64,000 nt of DNA from Thermodesulfobacteriota bacterium (lineage in GTDB: Bacteria > Desulfobacterota_D > UBA1144 > Nemesobacterales > Nemesobacteraceae). Position numbers and translations under genes: made by a program. The stretch lies in the NCBI GenBank assembly GCA_965116075.1, contig OZ220467.1, positions 1,857,067 to 1,921,066 of the forward strand. The letters are read 5' to 3'. The stretch's first letter is position 1, and the number at the start of each line of letters is the position of its first letter. Shown in pieces: positions 9,056-53,416 of the stretch. The notes under the pieces were generated by a model. It did not search any database. It was given only the letters and a program-made list of their open reading frames with translations, and was not told the DNA's origin.

Positions 9056-9501
9056 TGCAGGTTTCCTTTGATGATTGTGGAACCACTATGGGTTTATTTC
9101 TTTTGTAGATGGTGAATTTGTTATTAACTTGAGGTATTTACACTACAACGATTTTTGGGGCTATTTCCTTGAGGATGACCAGAAACAACATTAACTTGCT
9201 CTTATAGCAGAGGAGAAGATTCTGCTAGCAAATTATAATTTCAACCTATGAAGATACCTTTACAGTGACATTAAAAAATAAATAATATCATCAGGTTATT
9301 TGTTTTTTGGAGAATTTTTACAGAGGTTATATCAACCGATTTTAGTGTGGGGTGAAATTTCTGGGTTTTGGCTTACATTAGCCGATTTTAGGGCTTTTTG
9401 GGGGCTTTTTGCGGGGATTTCTGGGGTGAAAAGTTTTTTACCCCCCCCCCCCTCTAAAAATCCTTGATATGCATACATTTTTTGAACAGCGCAAATGCCT
9501 C
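9028..9501. mobile_element. MITE-like non-autonomous element (~474 bp) carrying both TIRs of the IS at 46583-48567
   Basis: Left end GAGGCATTTGCGCTGT (9028-9043); right end ACAGCGCAAATGCCTC (9486-9501), a perfect 16-bp inverted repeat. Interior 9300-9480 matches the IS right-end sequence (gtgaaattt..ggcttacattagccgattttaggg). Confidence 0.6.
9441..9452. repeat. homopolymeric C12 tract inside the MITE right-end module
   Basis: Twelve consecutive C. The master IS copy has only CCCC plus an interruption at the equivalent position (48508). Confidence 0.9.
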
Positions 9502-18583: not shown

Positions 18584-18968
18584 TTTAAGTCCTCCTTTAT
18601 CTTAAATCTTCTGCTGTGCAATATATCTATTACTGCTCAAACAGTTTCTACTTGAACCTAGTATCACCCCTAGTTCAGTCAACAAAATAGCCATTTTATT
18701 TAATCATATTTTCTCTTATACCGCAATTGAACTTGAAGAAAATACATACTTATCCACCCAAAACTTGTTTTTCGTAGAACTGATTCCTTGGTTTTCTATA
18801 TACATTTCCCCGTACCAAAGACAGTGTCAGTTTTTCTTGAATAGACAGTATGTCTGTCGAAAGATTTTGCCCGATATCCTAATATGGAACATCTTTGATC
18901 TGTATGTAATATTTTGAAAGCGTAGGTTGTTCGTTCTCTGTTAGTTGTTCGGAGGAATTCAAAGAAGT

Positions 18969-19053
18969 GCCCAGGGCCGGACTCGAACCGGCACGGGAAA
19001 AACTCCCGAGGGATTTTAAGTCCCTTGCGTCTACCAATTCCGCCACCCGGGCA
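18969..19053 (-). tRNA. tRNA-Leu (anticodon TAA), long variable arm, CCA not encoded
   Basis: Reverse complement gcccgggtggcggaattggtagacgc..ggacttaaaatccc..ggttcgagtccggccctgggca folds as a class II tRNA with anticodon loop cuUAAaa. Confidence 0.8.
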
Positions 19054-19077
19054 TCAGTCTTAACGCCAACCAAAATA

Positions 19078-19152
19078 TGGAGGCGGCGCCCGGATTCGAA
19101 CCGGGGTATAACGGTTTTGCAGACCGTCGCCTTACCTCTTGGCTACGCCGCC
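19078..19152 (-). tRNA. tRNA-Cys (anticodon GCA), CCA encoded
   Basis: Reverse complement ggcggcgtagccaagaggtaaggc..ctGCAaaacc..ggttcgaatccgggcgccgcctcca; 75 nt. Confidence 0.85.
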
Positions 19153-19294
19153 TAGAGTTGTAATAAAAAGATAGAGTGTACCAGAAAATTTTTTTTTGTG
19201 AACTTCTGGATAAAAACGAGTGCCGAATAATACAGATAATTTGACCAGAGATATTTAGCGGCAGTGACCGTGAATGGATTATTGCGTCCAAAGG

Positions 19295-19461
19295 CTGATA
19301 ATTGTGCGGAAATCAGCAGCGAATTGCGAAAATCAAGAAATCTGACCATCAGATTACTTAAACACCAATCAGCCCGAACTGAAACAGTGGTGAACATGTG
19401 TTTATAGGTCCTCATTACGTTAAAGCCGCTCCCCAAAAAACCCTACAGCGCAAATGCTTCC
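19295..19461. repeat. solo left-end (LE-A) copy of the IS at 46583, reverse orientation
   Basis: Reverse complement aligns along its length with 46583-46760 and 43054-43217, including the TIR (ACAGCGCAAATGC at 19445-19457). Confidence 0.6.
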
Positions 19462-19475
19462 TTTGTCGCTAGTCC

Positions 19476-19506
19476 TTGACTTATGTGAGGGGGGGGGGGG
19501 TAAAGT
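19476..19506 (+). promoter_or_regulatory. putative sigma-70 promoter with a G12 tract in the spacer: TTGACT, then 7 nt plus G12, then TAAAGT
   Basis: -35-like TTGACT at 19476-19481, -10-like TAAAGT at 19501-19506, 19-bp spacer containing the homopolymer. Roughly 95 nt upstream of the lipoprotein start codon. Confidence 0.45.
19489..19500. repeat. homopolymeric G12 tract
   Basis: Twelve consecutive G. Confidence 0.9.
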
Positions 19507-19601
19507 TAAAAGGCTAACTTAAGAATGAGGGTTTTATAACAAGGTTTTGCCAGATAAATATCCACTTTATAAATGGAACAACTTATAAGGGAGGTTTTAT
19601 T

Positions 19602-20759
19602 ATGAAGTTACGTAATTTATTAGTGATGTTGTTTCTGCTCACTGGAGCAGTTTTCTTTGTAGCTTGCGAGGGAAAAGACGGGAAAGACGGAGCGAGAGGG
19701 CCAGCAGGGCCAGCAGGTGAAAAGGGGGATAAGGGTGACAAAGGTGACAAAGGCGACCCCGGGCCAGCAGGCGCGGATGGCAGAGACCTAAACCCCACCG
19801 GTGATACTAGGTGTGATGTTAGTAATGGTATAGATGCCCCCACAGCAGTGCGAGAGATCGCAGGGACTATGGATGATGATGTTATTTGCGGAAATGATGG
19901 CGATAACGAAATAAGAGCGGGAGGGGGAGATGATACGGTTTACGGTGGAGATGGCAATGACAAGTTGTTAGGTGGAGATGGAGACGATACGCTTTATGGT
20001 GAAGATGGAAATGATCATTTTTTCTTTATAAATGAAGCCGGTGTTAATAAATTTGTTGGGGGTGCTGGTAAAGACCTAGTCTATTTTGCTCGTAATGTTG
20101 TAAACACAGGAACGTCTTCTGCAGGCATTTATAACAACCCTTCCGGTTCCCTAACTTCCAAAGATATAACCTTTGATCTCTCTTCTGGGAGTTGGGATGG
20201 GACTTCTATTGACACTGGATCATTCACTTTTGAAGGTATTGAGGATGTTATTAGCGGTGATGGTGACGACACTATTACCGGAAATGACGAATCTAACTAT
20301 CTCTATACATGGGATGGTGATGACACTATAAACGGCGGAGCTGGCAACGATTTGATTAATGGTGTGGGTGGTGACGATACGATAGACGGTGGTGCCGGCG
20401 ATGATATTTTAGTCGCATGGGATAATGGCAATGATACTCTTACTGGAGGCGCAGGCGCAGATATTTTTTATGCTCGATATGCGTCATCCCCTGACCTTGT
20501 AGTTATTAAGGATTTTGATACGGCAAACGACAAACTCTATTTCAGAAGTTTTCCAGCAGTATCAGGGAATAATAGAACCGTAACCGCCTCGGGAGGTAAG
20601 ATTTTGGTTGGAGGGAATGAATATTTTGAAATACATGATGCGAACGGTTCACCAGACAGCACAAAAGCAACAAATATTGCAGGCGACTCAACAAGATATC
20701 GGTTTGTAGCACATGAATTTTCAGGGGAAACAAGATTCTACACATTTACAGACGACTAA
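19602..20759 (+). CDS. lipoprotein with collagen-like GXY triple-helix repeats and RTX (hemolysin-type) calcium-binding repeats
   Basis: Signal peptide with lipobox-like FVAC; about 12 GXY triplets (GKDGKDGARGPAGPAGEKGDKGDKGDKGDPGPAGADG); repeated GGxGxD nonapeptides (GGDGNDKLLGGDGDDTLYGEDGND...). Confidence 0.75.
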   Translation: MKLRNLLVMLFLLTGAVFFVACEGKDGKDGARGPAGPAGEKGDKGDKGDKGDPGPAGADGRDLNPTGDTRCDVSNGIDAPTAVREIAGTMDDDVICGNDGDNEIRAGGGDDTVYGGDGNDKLLGGDGDDTLYGEDGNDHFFFINEAGVNKFVGGAGKDLVYFARNVVNTGTSSAGIYNNPSGSLTSKDITFDLSSGSWDGTSIDTGSFTFEGIEDVISGDGDDTITGNDESNYLYTWDGDDTINGGAGNDLINGVGGDDTIDGGAGDDILVAWDNGNDTLTGGAGADIFYARYASSPDLVVIKDFDTANDKLYFRSFPAVSGNNRTVTASGGKILVGGNEYFEIHDANGSPDSTKATNIAGDSTRYRFVAHEFSGETRFYTFTDD

Positions 20760-20786
20760 AGAAAACAGATTTATAGCAACTCTCGG

Positions 20787-20820
20787 CCCTGCAGGTTATC
20801 CCCCTGCGGGGCTTTTTTTT
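20787..20820 (+). terminator. rho-independent terminator
   Basis: ccctgcagg ttatccc cctgcgggg stem-loop followed by a T8 run. Confidence 0.6.
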
Positions 20821-29635: not shown

Positions 29636-31099
29636 TCAAACGCGTCTTTTCAGAAAAACAACCGAGAATAGAACAGACACCATAAACAACAGATTAACCA
29701 ATGCACTTTGAGGCGAATGACCTGTACCAGCAATCGCGCATCCGTCATCGTCATCTTTAGCCGATTGAGTCACAGGTGGTGGATAAATACCAGAACCAAA
29801 AATGTGGCGTAGATTTAATGTGGGTATCGCCTTGAGAGATGGGTTCTCTTTAACAGCTTCGGATAGTATATTCACAACTTCAATATAACTTACTTTAAGC
29901 GAAGTACCGGGGACAATCTTCTCTTCAAGGTAGTTCTCATTTTCATCATCTTGAACTTCAGGGTTATCCCAGCGATAGGTAACCCCGTTAGCAGAGTATC
30001 CAGCTTGAGGTTCCTCGTTGTCTTCTCCTTCTACCAACTTCTTTCGAAACAGAGTCACTATCTTTTTGTCTTCGCCTTCTAGTTCTTTATCTTCTAACTC
30101 CAACGTGAGACCATTCAAATTGGGATCGTTTGCGTTAATAAACACAGTACCTTCTGAAGTTGCTGTCATGACGAAAAGATATATGTTTTTATGCTTGAAA
30201 ACTTCAGAGGTACTCAGACAAGCAAATGAACTACTTATCTCCGCAAAACTATCACTAGTGAATTTTGCTATACCCTGCGGAGTAGACAAGTCTAAAGTAC
30301 CAGCACCCTTCTGATCATTGATCAACTTGGAAATTCTAGCGCGCAGAGCTTGTTGATACGATCCAATGGAACTTTTTACATAACCTTTAAGCAGTTCTTC
30401 TGTTGGGTTCTTATATACATCCTCAGCGGTAACTGGTAGAGCTGGAAAAACAGAGCAGTCAGGTTTAGAAAAAGGGTTGTTTTCATGTAATTTTCCATCA
30501 TCTTTCCTATTCTCATGATCAAGACCTACTATGATCTTCATAGCGTCCCTAGCTGGTCCGAAAGTTATGCTAATTCCACAAGTTTGTCTCGTTTTACCAT
30601 CATATTTGTAATCTTCGCACTCAGTAGTATTACCTCCGGCTGACTCATTAATTAAAATTTGCAAAGCCTCTGCAGGAGTGTCCTTCACCTTCGTAGAATC
30701 TAACTTGTACCCAAACAGTTCAGGATATTTCGAGTGACTTAATACGGTTCCACCAGCATCCACTACAATCACATACATTTCATCGGTTTTATAAACTTCT
30801 TGTGTTCTGAAATCTCTTGCAATAACTGAAAGCACTTGATTTGCACTTCTGCCAGTCGATTTTATAAGGGAATCATAATGCTCCTTTACATGTGAAAGAA
30901 ATTCCTGAACATCACTTTCAACAGTAGGATCTACATCTTTAGCCCCTTCATCATCCATATCTCCAACATCCTTACCCCCAACATTGACAACATGAGCGGA
31001 TACTTCAGTGGAAATGAACAAGAAAACCACCCCCAACAGAAAAACCAGACTTAGAACTCCCGTGGGGCAAATATTCCTTACAGAACTATCACTTTTCAT
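29636..31099 (-). CDS. secreted/surface protein with two tandem Cache-like (sCache_2-type) domains and a C-terminal GCAIAG/TM helix/KRR sorting-signal-like tail
   Basis: N-terminal signal/anchor. Cache-like segments YVIVVDAGGTVLSHSKYPELFGYKLD and NIYLFVMTATSEGTVFINANDPNLNGL...VTYRWDNP. C-terminal ...KDDDDGCAIAGTGHSPQSALVNLLFMVSVLFSVVFLKRRV. Confidence 0.65.
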   Translation of the reverse strand: MKSDSSVRNICPTGVLSLVFLLGVVFLFISTEVSAHVVNVGGKDVGDMDDEGAKDVDPTVESDVQEFLSHVKEHYDSLIKSTGRSANQVLSVIARDFRTQEVYKTDEMYVIVVDAGGTVLSHSKYPELFGYKLDSTKVKDTPAEALQILINESAGGNTTECEDYKYDGKTRQTCGISITFGPARDAMKIIVGLDHENRKDDGKLHENNPFSKPDCSVFPALPVTAEDVYKNPTEELLKGYVKSSIGSYQQALRARISKLINDQKGAGTLDLSTPQGIAKFTSDSFAEISSSFACLSTSEVFKHKNIYLFVMTATSEGTVFINANDPNLNGLTLELEDKELEGEDKKIVTLFRKKLVEGEDNEEPQAGYSANGVTYRWDNPEVQDDENENYLEEKIVPGTSLKVSYIEVVNILSEAVKENPSLKAIPTLNLRHIFGSGIYPPPVTQSAKDDDDGCAIAGTGHSPQSALVNLLFMVSVLFSVVFLKRRV

Positions 31100-39160: not shown

Positions 39161-39244
39161 ATATTTTGTCCTCTCCCAAACCCCCTTGTTTATATACACG
39201 ATATTGAATCTTACATACCTCTGTATATTTATTTTTGCTAGTGT

Positions 39245-39300
39245 TCCACACAAAAAAGCCCCACGATGACAAGCGTCACCGCAGGGCTTGAAATTGGTAT
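39245..39300 (-). terminator. probable rho-independent terminator for the minus-strand lipoprotein gene
   Basis: GC-rich imperfect hairpin (gccctgcggtgacgcttgtcatcgtggggc) followed by a T6 run on the minus strand. Confidence 0.4.
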
Positions 39301-39313
39301 AAATCTATTTTCT

Positions 39314-40474
39314 TTAGTTGTCTGTAAAAATGTAGGTTCTTGACGTTGCTGAGAAAGAAGCAGTAACAAACTTATATTTTGTTGGGTCGTTTGCAATACT
39401 AGTTGCTTTTGTGCTGTCTGGAGCACCATTAGCGTCGTGAAGCAGAAATGAATGGGTGTAAACACTAGGATCCCTCGCTACTATAATCTTGCCATTTTCA
39501 GCCCTTACTTCTCTCTCTCCACCGCCTTCTGTTGCTACGGGATAACCTATGGAATAGAGTTTGTCTTCTGTAAGGTTAAAGTCCTTGATAACATCCACCC
39601 CAGCATGGTAATGACGAGCAGTAAAGATGTCGGCACCTACTCTACCACGAAGAATATCATCTCCATCTCCACCGTTTATAATGTCAACACCATTACCGCC
39701 GACAAGGTGATCATCGCCAGCTTCGCCGTTTATAGTGTTACCACCATTTCCACCCCAAATATAGTTATCCCCGTTTGTTCCGGTCAGCATGTCATCGCCA
39801 TTACCACTATAAAAATCTTCAATATCTTCAAATATAACCTTGCCTAATTTCTCAAGAGGTTCAGAACCACCTTCAAAACTTCCAGAAGAAAGATCAAAAG
39901 TTATATTATTGTTGACTACGGAACCAGAATAAAAACCCGAAGAGGAGGCACGAGCCCCCTCTGCGGGTGCTTGCCTGAAATAAATTATGTCTTTATCCTC
40001 CCCACCGAACCACTTGTTCTCCCCTGACGCAGATAGAAGATAGAAATGATCTTGTCCATCTTCGCCGTAAAGCGTATCGTTATCATCTCCACCCATCAGC
40101 CTATCATTTCCCTTACCTGCATAAACAACATCATCACCAGCAAGCGTTCTTATATCATTGTCGCTATCATTTGCGCAGACGATATCGGCATCCTGTGTTC
40201 CTTCAATGCTTCTCATGCCAGGGAGTACATTTATCCCGTTACTCTTATCGCATCTCGGGTCGTTTTCAACGCCGTCGCCTTTGTCACCTTTATCGCCTTT
40301 CGCTCCGTCCTTTCCTGGATCACCTTTGTCCCCCTTTGGTCCCGCCGGTCCGCGTTCGCCTTGAGGCCCTTGCACTCCGTCTTTCCTCGCTGGCCCTCTC
40401 TCTCCCTCACAAGCTACAAAAAAAACTGCTCCAGTAAGCAGCAACAACATCACTAATAAACTACGTAACTTCAT
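39314..40474 (-). CDS. paralogous lipoprotein with collagen-like GXY repeats and RTX calcium-binding repeats
   Basis: N-terminus MKLRSLLVMLLLLTGAVFFVACEG, near-identical to the 19602 gene. GXY run (GERGPARKDGVQGPQGERGPAGPKGDKGDPGKDGAKGDKGDKGDG); GGxGxD repeats; shared C-terminal ...FTDN. Confidence 0.75.
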   Translation of the reverse strand: MKLRSLLVMLLLLTGAVFFVACEGERGPARKDGVQGPQGERGPAGPKGDKGDPGKDGAKGDKGDKGDGVENDPRCDKSNGINVLPGMRSIEGTQDADIVCANDSDNDIRTLAGDDVVYAGKGNDRLMGGDDNDTLYGEDGQDHFYLLSASGENKWFGGEDKDIIYFRQAPAEGARASSSGFYSGSVVNNNITFDLSSGSFEGGSEPLEKLGKVIFEDIEDFYSGNGDDMLTGTNGDNYIWGGNGGNTINGEAGDDHLVGGNGVDIINGGDGDDILRGRVGADIFTARHYHAGVDVIKDFNLTEDKLYSIGYPVATEGGGEREVRAENGKIIVARDPSVYTHSFLLHDANGAPDSTKATSIANDPTKYKFVTASFSATSRTYIFTDN

Positions 40475-40555
40475 ATTACAACCTCCCTTATAAGTTGTTC
40501 CATTTATCTGGCAAAACCTTGTTATAGAACCCTCATTCTTACAATTAGTCTTTTG

Positions 40556-40600
40556 ATTTTACCCCCCCCCCCAGGGCTTTCTAATTTTTTAGAGGCGTAA
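40556..40600 (-). promoter_or_regulatory. putative promoter with a G11 tract (minus strand: TTAGAA, then 6 nt plus G11, then TAAAAT)
   Basis: The minus-strand sequence downstream of the G tract is ~85% identical to the 19501-19601 5'UTR of the paralogous gene. Confidence 0.4.
40562..40572. repeat. homopolymeric C11 tract (G11 on the gene strand)
   Basis: Eleven consecutive C. Confidence 0.9.
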
Positions 40601-40899
40601 GTCGTTGATATTACCGAGTATATCCTTTCAAAGAGAGTTTTGCATCTTAGAGGTTGCCACTACGTCATGGAGAGAAATTAGAGACTCATTTGTCTTCCCT
40701 TTCTAGCTGACATGTAGAAGAATTAGGCTCGGTTTCAGTCCTTCGTAAGTTTTTTCTTATAACAAACACTTCTGAATTATAATCTGCGGAGTTGGATATG
40801 TAGGGAGAATATATCCAAGGTAGTACATTGTCATTTGGGGATTTGAGAAAACAGTGAAGTAATATTAGTACGTTATAATCCGGATATTCCAACAGAGAT

Positions 40900-43014
40900 A
40901 TTAAGTCACAATTCGGTTTCTTCGTTGTTAGATTTCGATCTGGACGTTACAAATTTAGTTCTGGCTATTTAATGTTTGTTATGGTATGGTGTAGATCATG
41001 AGTAGACAGATGTCTCAGGATAATAAGATTGATCTGCGCGCGATCACAGTACGTCCTACCTATGGGGAACAGGAGCGTCGTCACTGGGACCACTTAGTCA
41101 GACTACATCACTATCTTCCATTCCATCGCGTGTTCGGCAAGGGATTGCGTCATGTAGCGGAAGTTGGGTCGCGTTGGGTGGCGCTTATTGGTTGGCAGGC
41201 AGGCGCATTCAAGTTAGCGGCCCGAGACCGCTGGATTGGCTGGAGCGCCGAGCAGCAGTTTGGACGCTTGCATCTGATTGCCAACAATGTGCGGTTTGTC
41301 ATTCTGACACGGCAGCGGGTGGCGAACTTGGCATCCCGAGTGCTGGGTCTGAGTCTGAGGCGGCTGTCTTCGGACATGCAGACAGCGCACGGTTATCCAG
41401 TGTTTCTGGCTGAGACGTTCGTAGATATTTCACGTTTTAATGGTACTTGCTACCGGGCGGCCAACTGGCAGTCTTTCGGGCTAACGCGCGGGTTTGCCCG
41501 TGAGTCTGGAGGGTCTGCGCGGTGGCGCTATCATGGTCAACCCAAGGAGGTCTTCATGTTTAATCTCGTTGATAATGCTAAAGAAGTATTAAGTCAAGAA
41601 GAGTTACCACCAGAATGGACCGGTGGGGTTCGTAAGGAGCCTATGACGGCGCCACAGTTACGCAGTCTCAAAGATGTTCTAGGTAAGGTGCCTGAGTTCC
41701 GAAAGTCTCAAGGTAGACGCTATCCTCTTGTCACCGTGTTGGTTCTCGCTGTCGCCGCCCGTTTGGCTGGATACCGCGGGGTGTCCGCCATAGCGCAGTT
41801 CGCCCGACTACTTAGTCAGGAACAGCTTAAGGCCGTTGGAGCGTTCTACAGTCCCAGTAAGAAATGCTACACTGCGCCGGTAATTGCCACCTTCCATAAC
41901 ATCTTCGCAAAACTGCCACCCGACACGCTTGATAAAGCGCTGAACCTGTGGGAAGCCCGCAAGACCTCGCCCGCAGCGCCGGTGGCGATGGACAGCAAGA
42001 TGATTCGTGGCGCAGCCAAGCAGACTGAGGGTGGAATTAGAATGATGGTAGCTGCCCTCGAACATAACACCGGCGTGGTTCTCGGTCAACTAGCAATCAA
42101 AGAAAAGAGCAGTGAGATGCTAGTGGTACGCGACCTAGCCAATAAACTCGACATTGCTGATCGTACTGTCACTCTAGATGCGCTGCATGCCCAGCAGGAT
42201 ACGGCGCGCTGTCTGCTGGAAAATGGAGCCGACTATGTGATGACCGCCATCAAGAACAATCAAAGAAGGATCAGCAAGGAAATAAAGGGATTGGACTTTG
42301 ATGCTGTGCCAGGATGGACAACCGAAGATTATAAACATGGGAGGATTGAAGAACGGACCTGTTGGGTAGTAGACCTATCCGGTTCTGAGTGGGATGGACA
42401 TGTAGGCATGCACGGACGGCGTCAAGCCATACGCATAGTCCGCAAGCGCACTGAGAAGAAGACAGGTAAAACCAGTTGCGAGACTGTCTATGCTCTGACC
42501 TCACTTGGCCCAGAGCAGGCTGGAGCCAAGGAGTTACTTGCTCTGGTTCGCAACCACTGGCACATTGAGAACCGTCTGCATTATGTGCGTGACTTCACCT
42601 ACGATGAAGACCGTTGTCGGGTATCAAAAGGGTACTTACCGGAAAATCTTTCCTGTCTGAGCAACGTTGTCATCGCCATAGTGCGTTGTGAAGGTAGATT
42701 CAACTATCTGCCTGAAGCTAACCGACACTATGCCGCCCGGCCTCAGGAAGCTATTGAACTTATAATGAAGCCGTTGAACTGAACGGTCGCACTTTACTCA
42801 CAACCCCGCCGGATAGCCTGTGCACTGCTCAGGTCTGATACCCTACGCCTACTGGACGGACAAAGGCTGCGTACACTGTAAGATGAAGCCGAATGTACCC
42901 TTGTTTCTTGCTAAAACTCTCCATCTGAAGTCCAAATCACAATCCAAACACTCCAAAACATCTATCTACCCAACCCTATACAAAGTCCCCGCTACGAAAA
43001 CTGAATGGTCCTGA
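40900..43014 (+). mobile_element. ISAs1-family insertion sequence (approximate boundaries)
   Basis: Contains the ISAs1-type transposase ORF; its right boundary is placed where the conserved lipoprotein-promoter remnant (G10 at 43015) begins. Confidence 0.5.
40998..42782 (+). CDS. ISAs1-family transposase with an N-terminal Arg-rich extension (594 aa)
   Basis: C-terminal NHWHIENRLHYVRDFTYDEDRCRV signature of ISAs1 (H-repeat-associated) transposases; DDE core upstream. Confidence 0.8.
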   Translation: MSRQMSQDNKIDLRAITVRPTYGEQERRHWDHLVRLHHYLPFHRVFGKGLRHVAEVGSRWVALIGWQAGAFKLAARDRWIGWSAEQQFGRLHLIANNVRFVILTRQRVANLASRVLGLSLRRLSSDMQTAHGYPVFLAETFVDISRFNGTCYRAANWQSFGLTRGFARESGGSARWRYHGQPKEVFMFNLVDNAKEVLSQEELPPEWTGGVRKEPMTAPQLRSLKDVLGKVPEFRKSQGRRYPLVTVLVLAVAARLAGYRGVSAIAQFARLLSQEQLKAVGAFYSPSKKCYTAPVIATFHNIFAKLPPDTLDKALNLWEARKTSPAAPVAMDSKMIRGAAKQTEGGIRMMVAALEHNTGVVLGQLAIKEKSSEMLVVRDLANKLDIADRTVTLDALHAQQDTARCLLENGADYVMTAIKNNQRRISKEIKGLDFDAVPGWTTEDYKHGRIEERTCWVVDLSGSEWDGHVGMHGRRQAIRIVRKRTEKKTGKTSCETVYALTSLGPEQAGAKELLALVRNHWHIENRLHYVRDFTYDEDRCRVSKGYLPENLSCLSNVVIAIVRCEGRFNYLPEANRHYAARPQEAIELIMKPLN

Positions 43015-43024
43015 CCCCCCCCCC
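43015..43024. repeat. homopolymeric C10 tract in an orphan copy of the lipoprotein promoter module
   Basis: Reverse complement ...ctttctcgctagttcttgactttgtgag-G10 matches 19461-19500 (ctttgtcgctagtccttgacttatgtgag-G12). Confidence 0.9.
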
Positions 43025-43053
43025 TCACAAAGTCAAGAACTAGCGAGAAAGAA

Positions 43054-43217
43054 GGCATTTGCGCTGTAGGGTTTTTGGGAGTGGTTTTAGACGAATGAGG
43101 ACGTATGAACGCATGTTCAACACTGTTTCAGTTCGTACTGATTCGTATTTGAGCAATCTGATGGGCAGATTTCTTGATTTTCCCGCAATTTCCTGCTGAT
43201 TTCCGCACAATTATCAG
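43054..43217. repeat. solo left-end (LE-A) copy of the IS at 46583, forward orientation
   Basis: GGCATTTGCGCTGTAGGGTTTTTGGGAGTGGTTTTAGACG...CAATTATCAG aligns throughout with 46585-46749. Confidence 0.55.
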
Positions 43218-45343: not shown

Positions 45344-46500
45344 TTAACCTCCTAGTGTTCCGTCAAGCAATGATTTTGGGTAGAGAGACTTAAGTCTGCA
45401 ACGGGCATCGGCAACCGACATACGCCAGTTCACACCACGCTGGCTTGCGTTGACGCGTTGCGACCACGCCGTTACTTCTGCCCGCAACTCGTCTAAGTCC
45501 CCGATCCGTAGACCCTTCAGACACTGCCGCGTCAGACAACTCAACTCGCACTCCGCCACGTTCAGCCAACTCGCGTGCTTTGGGGTGTACTGGAACTTGA
45601 TGCGCTGTCTCAACCGCCGTGCCCGCTCCGGCTCAAAAGCCTCGTATAACGCTCCCAGCGTGTGCGTGTTGAGGTTGTCCAGCACCAGCGTGATCATCTC
45701 GCAGTTTGCATAGCGATTCTCCAGCAGAGCCGCCACCTCCTCCGCCCAGTCCAATTTAGTGCGCCGCTCTCGCACCGTCACCGTGCGCCAACCTGCCAGC
45801 GGTTCACAGAACAGGAACACCAAGGCCATGCCGGCCCGTTGATACTTATAGTCCACACGGTGCGGATGCTCCGTGGTTGCAGGCAATGGCTGGCGGGTTT
45901 CCCCCACCATCTGTAGTCCATGCAAAACACTGGCCGCCGCTCATCGTAAGGCTCCTCGTAGGTCGACAGAACATCTTCCATGGCCGCCACATACTCCCCG
46001 TCCGCCTTCGGCGGAATCACCCAGTACTGCAGGTAGCGTCCCGCTATACCGTTTTTTTTAATGTCTTGTTGACGGTTTCGTGGCTGATCAATTCACAGAT
46101 GCCGGTCTCAACCGCCTCGCTTGCCAGCAGACGTAGCGACCATTGACCGCAACCGGCCGGTGGCGACCCCAGCCGTAGTGCGATCAGCGCGGCTTCCTGC
46201 CGCCCGTCCAAAAGCTTCGGTGGTCAGGTGGACGGGTTCTGTTGCCGCCCGTTGAGGGCCAACTCAAAACCTTCCAGCACACAACATTTACGCACGTTCG
46301 CGACGGTGCGCTCCTGACAACCGTAGGCCTCCGCGACCTGGTGGTCGCACCAGTTCGGCCCGTCCGCATCAACTTGTAGCAGAATACGCGCCCTGCACGC
46401 TTTCTGACTGCTACCCTTGAGTTTCTTGATGACCTCCCGACATGTCTTGCGTTCGGCCTCTGACAGGCGCACAATGTACTTCTTCATGGTTACTTCTCCT
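45344..46500 (-). pseudogene. IS630-family (Tc1/mariner-like) transposase split across three frames
   Basis: HTH N-terminal part 46224-46500 (...IVRLSEAERKTCREVIKK...). DDE part at 45344-45925 (VLDNLNTHT...YTPKHASWLNVAECE). Intervening piece 45778-46020 in a third frame. Confidence 0.65.
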
Positions 46501-46582
46501 TTGTTATAGAAAGATGGCTTGGGACACAGATCCCTCGCCTTAAAACACATTATACACAAAATGTTGATCTTGACGCAACACT

Positions 46583-48567
46583 GAGGCATTTGCGCTGTAA
46601 GGTTTTTGAGAGTGATTTTAGACGTAATGAGGTCATATGAACACATGTTCAGAACCGTTTCAGTTTGTACTGATTCGTATTTGAACAATCTGACGGTCAG
46701 ATTCCTTGATTTTCGCAGGATATGATGCTGATTTTCGCCCAATTATCAGCCTTTAGACGCAACTATACATTCACGGCCACTACCGCTAAATTCCTCTGGT
46801 CAAATTATCTGTAGTATTCGGAGAAAAACCCTATCCAGCCCGAGGAGCACACCCAGAAACAAGGGACCTCATCTTATCAGCCCTTCCAGCCTTTATGTGT
46901 CCAATGGCTAACGCCATCATCACACTCAACGCTAAGCCTGTACGAGCAGTCATTTTTGCCTTGCCTCTGATAAAATGCCTCTCTAACTTAAAACTATTGT
47001 CAACCCTTGAGTTTATACGTTCTATAGAATTCCTAAGCTTATACTCCCGCTCCCAAGTTACTGAACCATACGGAGTCGGGGTAAAAATACGAGGGTCCTT
47101 GTCCAAAGGAACTCGTATGGATAAGCCATATTCACTGTTCTTACGACCCGCATTTTTGTGACACTTCTCCCTGCCTACGCAATTCAGGTTATGCGCTGCC
47201 GCAGGACAACGAAACTTCAAAGTACCTCGCTCCTCTTCATATCCCCAACCCACCAACTTACTTTCTACCTTGGTTATAGGACAACGACACCAAACCTCGC
47301 CCTTCTCTGTGTAGAATATGTTGTTAATATCTTCTCTCAAAGGCCGCATAATCTTTTGCCCAGCAATATAGTTCTGATTCTCCAACTCCACCCTCCACAT
47401 CTCTCGGATACCAATTATAGGGTCAGTTCCATATTCGTTCCAAAACTTCTTCTTCAATGACTCACTGTCAAGACCCTTGTCTGCGCTGAAATATTCGCAT
47501 CGCTCCACCAACTCAGGGTTCTGCGCAAACAACTTGTCTATCATCCGATTCAACTCCTTATATTCTGATACAGATGCCTTTGTAAGACTCATCGCAACCG
47601 GTATCTCATACTTGGTATCGGCAATTACATGCAACTTGTAACCAAACCATCTCTTTACGCTTTTCCATGCCTTGCCTGTAGCAGAGTTAAACCCAGACGT
47701 AGTATGTACTCCCCAGTCCGCATCAGGATCGGATGTCTCTCCTGTCTTATTGCTCTTTCTCCCTGTGGAATTACTCTCTATAGACTTACCGTCATATCCT
47801 AGATGCTTCCCAAAATCCGGAAGCGATTCTCTCAACTCTCCTCCCATTCTATCCATCATTTTCGAAATCAGACCGTCGCGTTGCTCCAACTTCGCTACGT
47901 TTGATAGAAACCGAGAGAAATTGTGACTGCTAGGCGCCGTACTGTAGATAGGAAATTGTTTAACCACAACTTTAGGTCTCCCGCCGTTTTCATCCTGCTC
48001 AAGACTGTACTTGTCAATATGTTGTATGGGAATGGGACAGAATCCACATCTATTAAGTAGTTCAGAATTACGGTTCAGTTCCCGTATCAGTGATTCTATG
48101 GATTCGTGCTGAAACACTACGCCAGCAATCGTCGCCCTCCACATTGGTTCTACCGGATACTCATTACGCCCGTTCTTGCGCATAGCTTTCAAAGCCCTAA
48201 TGATATCTTCATCAGGCAAAGCATCCAAAACCAACTCAAGACGGTTGAGGTCTGAAATCTCATCAATTTGTTCCCAAGAGAATGGTAAATACTTTTTTTG
48301 TAGCAACTGTTTGCTCCTTATAGAGAGAATGTGTGAATGTTAGGAAGAATAATAACTGATATAGAATGTAAAGCAAGTAATATCAGCAAGTTATTTATCT
48401 CTTTCCCAAGTTTTTCAGGGAGAAATCGGCAACTGGTTTATGTGGGGTGAAATTTGTGGTTTTTGGCTTACATTAGCCGATTTTAGGGCTTTTTTGGGGT
48501 AAAAAGTTTTTTACCCCTTCTAAAAACCCTTGATATACATACATCTTTTGGACAGCGCAAATGCCTC
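46583..48567 (-). mobile_element. intact insertion sequence (~1985 bp) with perfect 16-bp TIRs and one DDE transposase ORF; master copy of the dispersed LE/RE repeats
   Basis: GAGGCATTTGCGCTGT at 46583-46598 and ACAGCGCAAATGCCTC at 48552-48567. LE interior matches the 43054 and 19295 copies; RE interior matches 9300-9501 and 31255-31400. Confidence 0.7.
46831..48306 (-). CDS. DDE transposase, IS4/IS5 superfamily (family unassigned)
   Basis: 491 aa. DDE region (GYKLHVIADTKYEIPVAM...) and C-terminal E(x6)R/K signature (SIERINSRVDNSFKLER) typical of the IS4/IS5 superfamily. Confidence 0.8.
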   Translation of the reverse strand: MLQKKYLPFSWEQIDEISDLNRLELVLDALPDEDIIRALKAMRKNGRNEYPVEPMWRATIAGVVFQHESIESLIRELNRNSELLNRCGFCPIPIQHIDKYSLEQDENGGRPKVVVKQFPIYSTAPSSHNFSRFLSNVAKLEQRDGLISKMMDRMGGELRESLPDFGKHLGYDGKSIESNSTGRKSNKTGETSDPDADWGVHTTSGFNSATGKAWKSVKRWFGYKLHVIADTKYEIPVAMSLTKASVSEYKELNRMIDKLFAQNPELVERCEYFSADKGLDSESLKKKFWNEYGTDPIIGIREMWRVELENQNYIAGQKIMRPLREDINNIFYTEKGEVWCRCPITKVESKLVGWGYEEERGTLKFRCPAAAHNLNCVGREKCHKNAGRKNSEYGLSIRVPLDKDPRIFTPTPYGSVTWEREYKLRNSIERINSRVDNSFKLERHFIRGKAKMTARTGLALSVMMALAIGHIKAGRADKMRSLVSGCAPRAG

Positions 48568-48742: not shown

Positions 48743-50236
48743 ATGAAGTTTGTTGGATGCTTTCAAAGGGCTCATTCTATAAGAATCCTGACTCTATTTT
48801 TCGTAGGTGTCATGTTATTATTTACATTCGCTCATACTACTAAAGTATTAGCTCATGATCCTAGCGATGCCGATGATAAGAAAGCTTCAGACGTAGATGT
48901 TACAAGTAAGGCAGATGTTGAGGGATTTCTCTCACATGTAGTGGAACATTATAATTCTCTATCGGAATCGTCGTTAAAGGAAAGAAGTGAAGACTCATCA
49001 ACATCGCGACAGTTTGCACCTGCCGCCAGAGAGTTAAGGACCAATCCGGTCTACAAAGACCTTGACAGGGGAATGTATGTAATTTTAATAAACTCTGGTG
49101 GAACTGTATTAAATCACTCGGCATATCCCGAACTTTTTGGGTACAAGTTTGATATGACTTCTATTGAAGGGGATGACAATGAAGGAGAGGACACGACTCC
49201 TGCTGAAGCTTTACAAGTTTTAATTACGGAGTCAACTGGAGGTAATACTAAGTGCAAAGATTATAAATATGGTGATAAAACGAGATGGGCCTGCGGAACC
49301 CGTGTAAATTACGGACGTTTCGAGGATGTTATAACGGCCGTAGTAGGTCTTCATCATGAGAATAAGAAAGATGATGGGAAGTTACATGAAAACAACCCTT
49401 TTTCTGAACCTGACTGCCCTGGTTTTCTAGAGTTAAAAACCACTGCTAAGAAGGTACATATGGATCCGACGGAGGCCAACCTTAAAGCTTTTGTAAGAGA
49501 ATCTATTGAATCGCTTAACCACGCTGTAGCTAAAGGTATGTCCGATCTAGTAGGTAAGCAGACCTCAGACTTCTTGTCTACTGAGCAGAAACGATTGGAT
49601 TTTGCTGAGAAAATCGCTGTTAAGTTAACTAGTTTAGCTGGTTGTGCTAATGTTGAAGAATTCAAGCATGAAAACATATATCTTTTCGCTATGACGGCAA
49701 CTCCAGAAGGTACTGTGTTTGTTAACGGAAACAATGCCGATTTGAATGGTCTTACACTAGAGTTAGAAGATGGAGAGTTAGACGGTGATGACAAAAAAAT
49801 AGTGACCCTGTTTCGAAATGCGTTGATACCTCAAAATAGAAAGGAAAAGAAACCCAAAGTTGGAGATTCCGCTATAGTCGAATACCGATGGAGCGACCCT
49901 GCTAAAAACGGTACTGATCTGATTAAGAACTGGCTTGAAAATAACAGTGTTCCCGGCACTACGCCTAAGAAAAGTTATATTCAAGTGACGGATATAACAT
50001 CTGGAATTGACGAAAAGATTCGGAAGATTCCAGGACTTGGTCAGTTACTGGACGGCATAACTCTCAAGATCGTTGGTTCTGGGATTTATCCAACCCCAAC
50101 AACTCCAGCGACTAAAGATGACGATGACGGATGCGCGATTGCTGGAACAGACCATTCATCTCAAAACGCTTTGGTTAATCTATTGTTGATAACATCTGTT
50201 CTGTTCTCAATTGTTTTTTTGAGAAGACGCGCTTAA
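48743..50236 (+). CDS. paralogous secreted/surface protein with tandem Cache-like domains and C-terminal GCAIAG/TM helix/RRR tail
   Basis: Shares blocks with 29636-31099 (GGNT.C.DYKY, HENxKDDGKLHENNPFS.PDC, ENIYLF.MTAT.EGTVF, LNGLTLELED.EL.G.DKKIVTLFR) and the C-terminal KDDDDGCAIAGTDHSSQNALVNLLLITSVLFSIVFLRRRA. Confidence 0.65.
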   Translation: MKFVGCFQRAHSIRILTLFFVGVMLLFTFAHTTKVLAHDPSDADDKKASDVDVTSKADVEGFLSHVVEHYNSLSESSLKERSEDSSTSRQFAPAARELRTNPVYKDLDRGMYVILINSGGTVLNHSAYPELFGYKFDMTSIEGDDNEGEDTTPAEALQVLITESTGGNTKCKDYKYGDKTRWACGTRVNYGRFEDVITAVVGLHHENKKDDGKLHENNPFSEPDCPGFLELKTTAKKVHMDPTEANLKAFVRESIESLNHAVAKGMSDLVGKQTSDFLSTEQKRLDFAEKIAVKLTSLAGCANVEEFKHENIYLFAMTATPEGTVFVNGNNADLNGLTLELEDGELDGDDKKIVTLFRNALIPQNRKEKKPKVGDSAIVEYRWSDPAKNGTDLIKNWLENNSVPGTTPKKSYIQVTDITSGIDEKIRKIPGLGQLLDGITLKIVGSGIYPTPTTPATKDDDDGCAIAGTDHSSQNALVNLLLITSVLFSIVFLRRRA

Positions 50237-51146: not shown

Positions 51147-51393
51147 TACAAGAACTCGTTCAGAGGTACATACAGTTACTTGGTTCATTGTCCTTAAATA
51201 TCTTCGCAGACACCCTTCTTTCTCCACTGCACTCGGTATGGTTATGCCCACTACATACAGCGAAACTCTCTTAGCCCAAGTTTACCCAAAACCTACTAAA
51301 AATTGGCTATTTTCGGCCTTTTTTTCTCTTTTTTCCTACGGGTGAGCTTCGTATGTTAGTGATATGCCGTTATTTATAATTTTGAAAAGGCAA

Positions 51394-53336
51394 ATGTAGT
51401 GCCATACTACGCTTTTTACCCCTTGACATACATCTTACAATGTAATAATATCTCTATATATGTTCATTCGTCGCACTAAAACCAGAAAGGACTATGATTT
51501 CTTCACCTTCCGCCTCGTACGCTCCGAGCGTATAGGTAAAAAGGTGAAGCAACGTACTTTGCTCAACCTAGGAAGTAATTTTAATGTTGATCCCAAACAC
51601 TGGTCCCTGCTTTGCTATCGAATCAAGCAAATTCTCTCTGGTCAGTCTTCCCTATTAGATTATGAGATACCTTCTGAGTTGGAATCTCATGCCCAACAGA
51701 TTACTGCGCAATTGTTGGCCAAACGACGCGTTGGCTTCACAACCGAACTGGGATCTAGTAAGAACTCAAAGCCCGACTATCAGTGCGTTGACGTTAACTC
51801 TACGAAGACGATTCGGCCCCGTTCGGTAGGAGTAGAAAACGTAGCTCTGTGGGCGATGGACCAACTTGGTTTGCGTCAGTTACTTAATGAATTGGAATTA
51901 ACTCCGTCGTTGCGCGATGCCGCCATAGGTTCTATAGTAGCGCGTATGGCCGAGCCGGGTTCTGAGCAAGCCACTAGGCGTTGGTTAGCCAAAAGTAGCG
52001 CGCTTGGTGAGTTGATAGGAGTTGAGTTTGAGAAGATGGGAGCAATGCAGTTATATCGCGCTTCTGATGCGTTAATGGCGCACCGTGAAACCCTGGAACG
52101 TCATTTGTTCGAACGAGCGATGGAGTTATTTGATCTGAGTCCCACGATCACGCTCTACGACCTGACCAATACTTATTTTGAGGGAGGTGTAGACGGTATT
52201 GCAGAGGCAAAACGCGGGCACTCTAAGGAGAAACGTTCTGACTGTCCGTTACTCACTTTGGGGATGGTGGTTGACGCTAGCGGGTTTACTCGGCGCTTCA
52301 AAGTCTTTGCAGGTAATGTACGAGAGCATCAAACATTATCTGAGATGCTGAAACAACTTGACGCTCCCGCAAATGCCCTTGTGGTGATGGACCGAGGGAT
52401 TGCCACCGAAGACGGAGTACAGTGGCTACAAGAACAAGGCTATAAGTATGTTGTCGTCAGCAGAGAACGTAATCGTCAGTTTGACCCTGAGGGAGCTATA
52501 CGTCTTGAGACCGCATCAAATCATGGAGTCATTCTAAAAAAAGTGCTTTCAAAGGACGGCAAAGAGGTGAGACTGTACTGTTTCTCTGAATCCAGAGCGG
52601 CGAAGGAAGAATCCATCAGCAAGCGGTTCACCGAGAAGTTTGAAGAAGGACTGACTGCTCTATCGGAAAAGCTTACACGACCGCGCACAGTAAAACGGAT
52701 TGATAAGATATGGCAGAGTATAGGTCGTCTGCAAGGAGAAAGTCAAGGAATATCTCAACACTATAAGGTGGAAGTTGATACTGACGACAGTGGTAAATAC
52801 GCTACTGCAGTACGCTTTACTCGCAAGCCGGTGAGCGGCACGATGCTCACTGATCCTGGAGTGTACTGTCTGCGAAGCAACGAAACTGATTGGGACGAAG
52901 CCAAACTGTGGCGAACTTACTTCACTCTCACTGATATAGAAGCGGTATTCCGTTCTCTGAAGTCAGAACTTGGGTTACGCCCGATTTTCCACTGGAAATC
53001 GGTTAGAGCCGAAGGGCATCTGTTCATTACAGTGATAGCATATCAGTTGGTACAGGTTATCCGTACTAAGTTACGTCTGGCTGGTAAGCAAGCTAGTTGG
53101 AACACGCTACGCAATATTCTTGAGGACCAACGACGTACCACTTCGACCCTTCGTCGCCGTGATGGTAAAACGCTACATGTGCGCACGACTAGTCAACCGG
53201 AGTCAGAGCAACAGGAAATTTTAGGTGCATTGGGGGCTGACTTCACGGCGGGAGGAATGCAAAAGACGGTAGTATAATGTGCGCTTATTTTTGCAGAAAA
53301 TAGTTCCCGTAACAAAATGTAGTGCCACACCAATTT
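51394..53336 (+). mobile_element. IS1634-family insertion sequence (approximate boundaries)
   Basis: Transposase ORF flanked by the 13-bp direct repeat AAATGTAGTGCCA at 51394 and 53316. The IS1634 family is known for long and variable target duplications. Confidence 0.45.
51460..53277 (+). CDS. IS1634-family transposase
   Basis: N-terminus MFIRRTKTRKDYDFFTFRLVRSERIGKKVKQRTLLNLG is the typical IS1634 start; 605 aa. Confidence 0.8.
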   Translation: MFIRRTKTRKDYDFFTFRLVRSERIGKKVKQRTLLNLGSNFNVDPKHWSLLCYRIKQILSGQSSLLDYEIPSELESHAQQITAQLLAKRRVGFTTELGSSKNSKPDYQCVDVNSTKTIRPRSVGVENVALWAMDQLGLRQLLNELELTPSLRDAAIGSIVARMAEPGSEQATRRWLAKSSALGELIGVEFEKMGAMQLYRASDALMAHRETLERHLFERAMELFDLSPTITLYDLTNTYFEGGVDGIAEAKRGHSKEKRSDCPLLTLGMVVDASGFTRRFKVFAGNVREHQTLSEMLKQLDAPANALVVMDRGIATEDGVQWLQEQGYKYVVVSRERNRQFDPEGAIRLETASNHGVILKKVLSKDGKEVRLYCFSESRAAKEESISKRFTEKFEEGLTALSEKLTRPRTVKRIDKIWQSIGRLQGESQGISQHYKVEVDTDDSGKYATAVRFTRKPVSGTMLTDPGVYCLRSNETDWDEAKLWRTYFTLTDIEAVFRSLKSELGLRPIFHWKSVRAEGHLFITVIAYQLVQVIRTKLRLAGKQASWNTLRNILEDQRRTTSTLRRRDGKTLHVRTTSQPESEQQEILGALGADFTAGGMQKTVV

Positions 53337-53416
53337 TTTATGACATCTAACCAGCTGATATCTAACATTTATTTTTTGGACATGTTAAACTTGGGTTAGA
53401 TTTCGGTTAACCACTT

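Follow-up and report, generated by a model that had tools for sequence, protein, structure and literature searches.

Collagen-like lipoproteins with RTX heads and poly-G promoters in a Dadabacteria lineage: a candidate slippage-switched surface repertoire

Two lipoprotein genes with a collagen-like tract and an RTX head

Two related genes in a 64,000-nt stretch of a Thermodesulfobacteriota chromosome (contig OZ220467.1, assembly GCA_965116075.1; this whole stretch is called the window here) encode small predicted lipoproteins that combine a lipobox signal peptide, a collagen-like Gly-X-Y tract and a repeats-in-toxin (RTX) beta-roll head. They belong to a large gene family with poly-G tracts between the -35 and -10 promoter boxes. 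The two open reading frames (ORFs), copy 1 of 385 amino acids (aa) and copy 2 of 386 aa, share the same architecture, with 49% identity from end to end (E 9e-99), which bears out the paralogy proposed in an earlier annotation made from the DNA letters and ORF translations (the sequence-only reading). The copy 2 protein is identical to database protein P0031 of the source chromosome. HtpG of the window likewise shows 100% identity to HtpG of that 2,386,527-bp contig, which places the window on it. The genes and their parts are listed below, with the promoter of copy 2 given later.

19476-19481 (+): -35 box of copy 1, TTGACT, read directly
19489-19500 (+): poly-G tract (G12) in the promoter spacer of copy 1
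19501-19506 (+): -10 box of copy 1, TAAAGT
19507-19601 (+): 5´ leader of copy 1, with the ribosome-binding site GGGAGG at 19589-19594
19602-20759 (+): copy 1 ORF from ATG to stop, 385 aa
19602-19667 (+): lipoprotein signal peptide of copy 1 (aa 1-21) and predicted lipid-modified Cys22, by a lipobox rule
19671-19787 (+): collagen-like region of copy 1, 13 unbroken Gly-X-Y triplets (aa 24-62)
19809-20756 (+): head domain of copy 1 (aa 70-385), ending in RFYTFTDD
20785-20813 (+): terminator-like hairpin of copy 1, 11 pairs, 8 of them G-C, and then a T run, 26 nt past the stop codon
39256-39289 (-): terminator-like hairpin of copy 2
39314-40474 (-): copy 2 ORF (paralog), 386 aa, architecture as in copy 1

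Since each copy has its own promoter and terminator and stands singly amid housekeeping genes, we regard both as independent transcription units, and each would be a self-contained cassette of -35 and -10 boxes, leader, ribosome-binding site and terminator. The leaders of copy 1 and copy 2 are 93-98% identical. A riboswitch or other leader RNA structure was considered and rejected: an Rfam scan of the window yielded two tRNAs only and no match in the leader, and the predicted leader fold showed no gain over shuffled sequence (z 0.16).

The lipobox claimed by the sequence-only reading is well supported. The signal peptide of copy 1, MKLRNLLVMLFLLTGAVFFVAC, conforms to a PROSITE PS51257-type rule (positive N-region, hydrophobic core and [LIVMF..][..][AGS]-C within the first 15-35 residues), as do copy 2 and 68/74 family members, and residues A21 and C22 are invariant among 42 aligned members. 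The proteins would thus be exported by the Sec pathway and cleaved by signal peptidase II, leaving a lipidated cysteine with ~13 Gly-X-Y triplets almost immediately after it. About 12 such triplets had been claimed; the collagen-like tract itself stands, with the count corrected to 13 unbroken triplets in copy 1, beginning two residues past Cys22, and to 2+12 in copy 2, where one Gly-to-Arg interruption occurs. Thirteen periodic glycines would arise by chance with a probability of ~1e-10 on a naive estimate. Among 74 members the number of triplets ranges from 8 to 16 (mode 13-15), and in 71/74 the tract starts at the same two-residue offset from the cysteine. The X and Y positions are enriched in Pro, Asp, Lys, Glu and Ala, as is typical of bacterial collagens, and a family profile searched against the PDB matched solved collagen chains at profile positions 24-66. 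With the Pfam Collagen model (PF01391, gathering cut-off 27.2 bits), scores were borderline at 27.5 bits for copy 1 and 26.9 bits for copy 2, so that the profile searches suggested by the sequence-only reading give a result at threshold for this domain and a clear one for the head (below).

The tract might instead form no triple helix, leaving the lipoprotein monomeric with a charged linker that is extended and flexible. It has just 13 triplets and no hydroxyproline, the Collagen score is at threshold, and in a remote homologue described below a Pro/Thr-rich linker takes over after just 5-6 triplets. AlphaFold2 likewise shows no structure for the Gly-X-Y region (predicted local distance difference test, pLDDT, <55, left unmodelled, with the signal peptide modelled as a helix), although low confidence here is expected of a monomer model. 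A simple linker would have no need for glycine at each third residue, however, and the strict period across 74 members, the fixed offset from the cysteine and the collagen-like X/Y composition make a plain linker an unlikely account. We favor a trimeric collagen-like stalk of ~10 nm, which would hold a calcium-stabilized head off the membrane.

In the head, a Cys71/Cys96 pair is followed in order by RTX block 1, a hypervariable stretch (aa 161-190), RTX block 2 and a C-terminal cap. The RTX beta-roll in the sequence-only reading is amply confirmed by Pfam HemolysinCabind (PF00353, gathering cut-off 23 bits), which scores 95.1 bits (E 2e-27) over five stretches of copy 1 and 69.6 bits over four stretches of copy 2; copy 1 also contains six strict nonapeptides (GGxGxDxUx). 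The structure prediction that had been suggested agrees. An AlphaFold2 model of copy 1 based on a 42-member family alignment has a mean pLDDT of 88.2, exceeding 90 from residue 70 to the C-terminus, and its head consists of short strands at a nine-residue period, that is, a predicted parallel beta-roll in two blocks with a loop (aa ~160-190) between them. The modelled cap comprises one helix and two strands, the conserved tail included, with pLDDT >93 for the C-terminal strands. The top Foldseek matches were RTX structures of CyaA, the Bordetella adenylate cyclase toxin (7rah_E, then 6sus and 7usl_C, probability 1.00; for 6sus, CyaA RTX blocks IV-V, E 1.6e-8 and a template modelling score of 0.64 on the target), followed by the C-terminal rolls of lipases and serralysins, and CyaA was also found by a sequence-profile search of the PDB (1.6e-90). 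The head is therefore modelled as an RTX beta-roll of two blocks closed by a C-terminal cap. Both C71 and C96 are invariant across the family; the pair fits an extracytoplasmic protein and may form a disulfide. The R(Y/T)YxFTD(D/N) tail that the sequence-only reading noted in both copies is real, though conserved within the window's clade only, as sister-clade proteins stop earlier, at ...EFVD.

RTX repeats are classic cargo of type I secretion systems (T1SS; PMC3034196). The proteins could accordingly be ordinary type I-secreted RTX exoproteins with a lipobox that is incidental, and a conserved C-terminal end would suit such cargo. We consider this very improbable. Conservation within the family peaks at the signal peptide and cysteine, and the conserved C-terminal strands belong, in the model, to the folded cap. 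No ABC or HlyD-type genes adjoin copy 1, copy 2 or seven other family loci examined, which is consistent with Sec export. T1SS exoproteins, by contrast, have no N-terminal signal peptide, keep an uncleaved secretion signal at the C-terminus and are linked to an ABC/membrane-fusion-protein export system.

Family size, range and divergence

At least 37 family copies lie on the source 2.39-Mb chromosome (36 full- or near-full-length database relatives plus the query). A sister genome, OZ242002.1 ("MAG: Thermodesulfobacteriota bacterium", a metagenome-assembled genome [MAG] of 1,980,752 bp), carries 29, with 11 more on shorter contigs of a closely related assembly. The sequence-only reading had overlooked this family of at least 37, together with the promoter poly-G tracts, the insertion sequence (IS) in the copy 2 promoter and the strain-specific occurrence of copy 2. 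HtpG of the sister genome is 88% identical to HtpG of the window, and the closest named relatives of the window's HtpG and PhzF are annotated "Candidatus Dadabacteria bacterium". The contigs are named in the manner of metaMDBG, with which Dadabacteria MAGs have been recovered by sponge HiFi metagenome projects (PMC12648040), and a sponge origin of the source bacterium is plausible.

Beyond this Ca. Dadabacteria lineage we found generic RTX proteins only and no full-length relative, one remote homologue aside. A genome-contig scan with the copy 1 protein alone gave no match, and with the family alignment it gave the sister genome and generic RTX proteins only. A metagenome-contig scan returned no family member, just generic RTX matches whose identity along the repeats did not exceed 44%. 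A profile search of 1.84 billion representatives gave 326,968 matches dominated by giant RTX proteins and was uninformative on the range of the family. The remote homologue, P0085 (locus L088), is 31% identical, has 5-6 triplets and then the Pro/Thr-rich linker, and has no poly-G tract. It is flanked by a DivIC/lactamase_B (metallo-beta-lactamase-fold) pair on one side and a PALP gene on the other. The sister-genome copy P0070 (L171) has the same neighbors (DivIC, lactamase_B and PALP), and this shared neighborhood therefore probably marks the family's ancestral locus, the starting point of its expansion.

Paralogs in the window's genome are 42-81% identical in pairwise comparison (median 55%), and the divergence is concentrated in patches. 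Averaged over pairs in blocks of 10 residues, identity stands at 83-87% in the signal peptide and lipobox, and its lowest values are 23-24% at aa 161-190 and 24% at aa 291-300, with 34-45% over most of the C-terminal third. These three low-identity parts may be the ligand- or antigen-facing ones. Codons for the same amino acid are identical in 81-87% of cases in the signal-peptide region, versus 41-73% elsewhere. The 5´ end is thus held uniform in its DNA, through either gene conversion or a nucleotide-level constraint.

This pattern bears on where the proteins reside. They might be periplasmic lipoprotein trimers in which the collagen stalk is a strut or tether of fixed length, like Braun's lipoprotein Lpp, and the RTX head binds an envelope component. 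A lipobox followed immediately by a rod-like segment recalls the Lpp layout, the window yielded neither a signal nor machinery for surface translocation, and a periplasm in seawater would hold enough Ca2+ for RTX folding. However, a set of at least 37 paralogs with its fastest divergence in patches of the head domain, a copy present or absent depending on the strain, and individually controlled promoters (both below) are hard to square with a housekeeping strut and indicate an external, changing selective agent. We therefore regard a periplasmic role as improbable and a calcium-dependent surface protein on a stalk as a reasonable prediction.

Poly-G promoters and a candidate slippage switch

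In copy 1 the promoter spacer is TATGTGA followed by G12, 19 nt in all, and in each window copy the G run sits ~100 nt upstream of the start codon. The window has no G/C runs of 7-9 nt and four of at least 10 nt, three of which are in family promoters. The layout TTGACT-N6/7-Gn-TAnAnT, with TTGACT or TTGACA as the -35 box, recurs in 23/25 distinct family genes examined; the hexamers are near the sigma-70 consensus, and TAnAnT is the family consensus for the -10 box. Tract length differs by clade. The 19 genes examined in the sister genome have TTGACT-N6-G9(10)-TAGAAT or TAAAAT, with exactly G9 in 18/19 and spacers of 15 nt (16 nt in one gene). The four intact genes of the window's clade have TTGACT-N6/7-G12-TAAAnT, with G12 in 4/4 and spacers of 18-19 nt. 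A consensus promoter scan, which accepts spacers of 16-18 nt, skipped the copy 1 promoter because its 19-nt spacer lies outside that range.

The sequence-only reading had placed slippage in the coding region, at the GDK triplets. This did not hold up: Tandem Repeats Finder reports an imperfect 9-bp array (4.8 copies, 79% matches) with a perfect unit in just 2.3 copies, and the range of 8-16 triplets among paralogs represents evolutionary variation, not evidence of slippage. Taken with the promoter tracts, this result makes the promoter poly-G, not the coding repeat, the hypermutable-looking element.

The promoter of copy 2 is split by an insertion, with the following parts.

40556-40561 (-): -10 box of copy 2, TAAAAT
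40562-40572 (-): proximal half of the copy 2 poly-G tract, G11
40573-43014 (no strand assigned): insertion of 2,442 bp that splits the copy 2 promoter within the G tract
40998-42782 (+): IS4-type transposase of the insertion (Pfam DruA, DDE_Tnp_1_assoc and DDE_Tnp_1)
43015-43036 (-): distal half of the copy 2 promoter, with the -35 box TTGACT (43031-43036), TTGTGA and G10 (43015-43024)

No -35 box adjoins the G11 of copy 2; the missing half lies 2.4 kb off on the same strand, and deletion of 40573-43014 in silico restores full colinearity with the upstream region of copy 1. The G runs on both sides of the insertion resemble a target-site duplication and may be one. No terminal inverted repeats were found at the junctions 40573 and 43014, so that the IS ends given here are approximate. 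The promoter scan calls a weak hybrid promoter, TAGAAA-16-TAAAAT, made of the IS end and the retained G11 and -10 box, which suggests that copy 2 has been either silenced or re-wired. In a related assembly (L086), a family -35 box is followed by a G13 tract that abuts the same IS end. Targeting of G tracts by this IS was considered and is not established, with 2/3 detectable copies of the IS end abutting a G run.

Copy 2 has also been gained or lost at the strain level. In a close strain (L087), in which the flanks are ~98% identical and the HtpG protein is 98% identical, hemB directly adjoins htpG and the entire 4,008-bp stretch 39209-43216, containing the copy 2 gene, its promoter and the IS, is missing. 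Two further IS elements of the window are missing from this strain as well.

A homopolymer that sets the distance between the -35 and -10 boxes is a classic design of transcriptional phase variation. In the family promoters the poly-G tract would set this spacer, and slipped-strand mispairing in the tract would alter the spacing and turn individual copies on or off, so that a cell would display a shifting subset of the repertoire of ~37 proteins. It is above all the switching itself that we infer, from near-consensus hexamers held at off-optimum spacing, an unstable tract and the known design. With modest confidence, we favor a variable surface-lipoprotein repertoire switched by homopolymer slippage.

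A serious rival treats the poly-G tract as a fixed promoter element, either a spacer with set geometry or a binding site for a regulator that serves the whole family and makes up for the non-optimal spacing. In that case the genes would share their regulation instead of switching stochastically, and their diversity would come from duplication, gene conversion and IS turnover only. Such an element would account for tract lengths that are near-invariant in the intact promoters of each clade and identical at three loci between two samples. The N6/N7 segment, which varies in sequence but is constant in length, suggests selection on total spacing. Total spacing nevertheless differs between the clades (15 versus 18-19 nt) though both hexamers are kept, and no dyad symmetry like that of MerR operators occurs in the spacer. 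A run of 9-12 G is, moreover, intrinsically unstable: disrupted promoters have G10, G11, G13 or G14 where intact ones have G12 or G9, as if the tract drifts once unconstrained. On these grounds we think a fixed element possible but rather doubtful.

Several points weigh against slippage switching of a stalked surface repertoire. The near-uniform lengths within each clade are the first, the contingency loci known to us being less uniform than the G9 and G12 seen here. Three orthologous promoters compared between two samples were all G9, in a comparison of consensus sequences from near-identical strains with 2-3x coverage in the second sample, and the length variation that is seen is confined to comparisons of paralogs or of clades and to disrupted promoters. 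For copy 1, the locus was sought in the close strain through its PhzF neighbor, where the next-best relative was just 67% identical. The clades fall on either side of the 17-nt optimum, which would require the consensus state to be 'off' in both. The tract lengths come from HiFi metagenome assemblies, in which homopolymer calls are the weakest point. On the protein side, the Collagen score is at threshold, a 13-triplet helix without hydroxyproline may be just marginally stable, and the Glu at +2 gives no certain hint on inner- versus outer-membrane sorting in this phylum.

The proposed working principle would most resemble that of the mycoplasma variable lipoproteins and the poly-G tpr genes of Treponema pallidum. 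In T. pallidum, the poly-G length in tpr promoters has been shown experimentally to determine promoter activity, with such promoters at tprE/G/J, tprL and tp0126 (PMC7864442). Both systems have paralogous predicted envelope proteins and a G run inside the promoter. Tpr proteins are beta-barrel porin candidates, however, in contrast to the collagen and RTX lipoproteins here, and the Dadabacteria family is far larger (at least 37), with its tract between near-consensus -35 and -10 boxes; length variability is documented for the T. pallidum tracts and not for those of Dadabacteria. In Mycoplasma hyorhinis Vlp and in Neisseria meningitidis porA and opc (the last reportedly in Sarkari 1994, cited in PMC5084427), a homopolymer in the -35/-10 spacer fixes the hexamer spacing as it would here. 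Vlp is alike, too, in being a multigene set of lipoproteins with a conserved signal peptide and 5´ region, a variable body and a promoter tract for each gene. The Vlp tract is poly-A, though, and the Neisseria tracts are poly-G or poly-C in single genes, as opposed to poly-G across a family; Vlp bodies are simple tandem repeats instead of folded collagen and RTX domains, and the bacteria with Vlp and the Neisseria genes are animal pathogens with demonstrated switching, unlike the Dadabacteria family.

In protein architecture, the family resembles the collagen-like surface proteins of other bacteria. Streptococcus Scl1/Scl2, Bacillus BclA, Legionella Lcl and the Pasteuria Pcl proteins, of which Pasteuria carries dozens of genes, similarly have a collagen-like rod and a variable distal globular domain. 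In Pasteuria ramosa Pcl7, the collagen-like region is joined to a C-terminal globular domain that acts in host attachment (PMC10987987). Unlike in these proteins, an N-terminal lipid would abut the helix here, with no LPXTG or exosporium anchoring, the rod is much shorter (13 triplets), and the head is an RTX beta-roll, not a C1q/TNF-like or V-domain; the family scores far under the cut-offs of the NCBIfam Scl and Lcl models. With CyaA blocks IV-V and the C-termini of serralysins and lipases, the head has in common Ca2+-binding nonapeptides, a two-block beta-roll and a C-terminal cap. Those proteins, however, are T1SS substrates with no N-terminal signal peptide, whereas the family has a Sec/signal peptidase II lipobox, no T1SS genes nearby and no catalytic or toxin domain.

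Each component is already known. In the literature searched, no description was found of their combination in an uncultured Dadabacteria lineage: lipid anchor, collagen stalk, Sec-exported beta-roll, at least 37 copies and poly-G promoters. To our knowledge, most descriptions of surface repertoires switched by homopolymer slippage concern animal pathogens such as Neisseria, Mycoplasma, Treponema and Campylobacter. If the proposal is true, the presence of this layout in an uncultured lineage, environmental or symbiotic, whose 2.4-Mb genome is laden with IS elements would suggest that stochastic surface variation is used well beyond pathogenesis, and it would provide work on Dadabacteria symbiosis with a sequence-defined candidate for interaction with host, phage or grazer. 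A lipid anchor directly before a collagen triple helix and an RTX beta-roll passing through Sec rather than type I secretion, both predicted, are unusual designs, and as a pair they are of interest to studies of RTX folding and to the engineering of bacterial collagens. More speculatively, and with considerable doubt, a probably host-associated marine Dadabacteria might run a pathogen-style contingency system that uses a collagen-like, possibly integrin-binding surface to mediate its recognition by an animal host, grazers or phages, with the G tracts as landing sites for IS4-like elements acting as a second, irreversible switch.

Other homopolymers, mobile elements and neighboring genes

The module upstream of each copy is a remnant of an IS5-like element.

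19223-19460 (+): upstream module of copy 1, IS5-like right-end remnant, homologous to 43053-43217 and 46584-46822
43053-43217 (-): upstream module of copy 2, IS5-like right-end remnant

At copy 1 the module ends in a 16-nt terminal repeat, ACAGCGCAAATGCTTC, 15 nt ahead of the -35 box. The right-end 240 bp of the element form the upstream module at both copies, always ~15 nt before the -35 box, and the terminal 16-mer occurs at least nine times in the window. A complete IS5-like element of 1,985 bp (46582-48566, with 46584-46822 as its right end) lies between inverted copies of GAGGCATTTGCGCTGT, with its transposase at 46831-48306 (Pfam DUF772 and DDE_Tnp_1), and is missing from the ~98% identical strain L087.

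The copy 1 cassette is flanked by a PhzF-family gene on one side and, directly upstream, by a pair of tRNA genes, tRNA-Leu(TAA) and tRNA-Cys(GCA), at 18967-19152 (-). Such genes are frequent integration points.

The fourth long homopolymer of the window (9441-9452, C12 on the + strand and G12 on the - strand) lies in a left-end IS5-like remnant, 37 nt inside the terminal repeat and right before TAAAAA, with no gene after it. Four other copies of the IS5-like left end, in the window and related loci, have just G3-G4 at that position. The sister genome (loci L001, L004, L008-L011 and L016) contains about nine more G9-G11 runs, within ~120 kb, away from family promoters. These have no clear genes downstream in the loci examined, and the sequence ctgttgtatc(g/a)gccga-G10 occurs twice among them. 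Homopolymer tracts of this lineage may be many more than those of the family.

The region from ~40.5 to 53.4 kb of the window is mostly mobile DNA. An IS630-like element (45344-46560), probably frameshifted since its helix-turn-helix and DDE_3 parts lie in two ORFs, sits precisely where an IS5-like terminal repeat ends. A DDE_Tnp_1 element at 51460-53277 (region 51275-53395) is missing from the close strain L087. The transposase of the copy 2 insertion has an N-terminal domain like DruA, a Druantia defence protein (Pfam E 4e-26), and stand-alone DruA ORFs adjoin IS66 transposases at the related locus L086. Finally, two paralogous genes, at 29636-31099 (-, 487 aa) and 48743-50236 (+, 497 aa), are ~74-83% identical at the DNA level; one of the pair has a dCache_2 match below threshold, and the gene at 48743-50236 is retained in the close strain L087.

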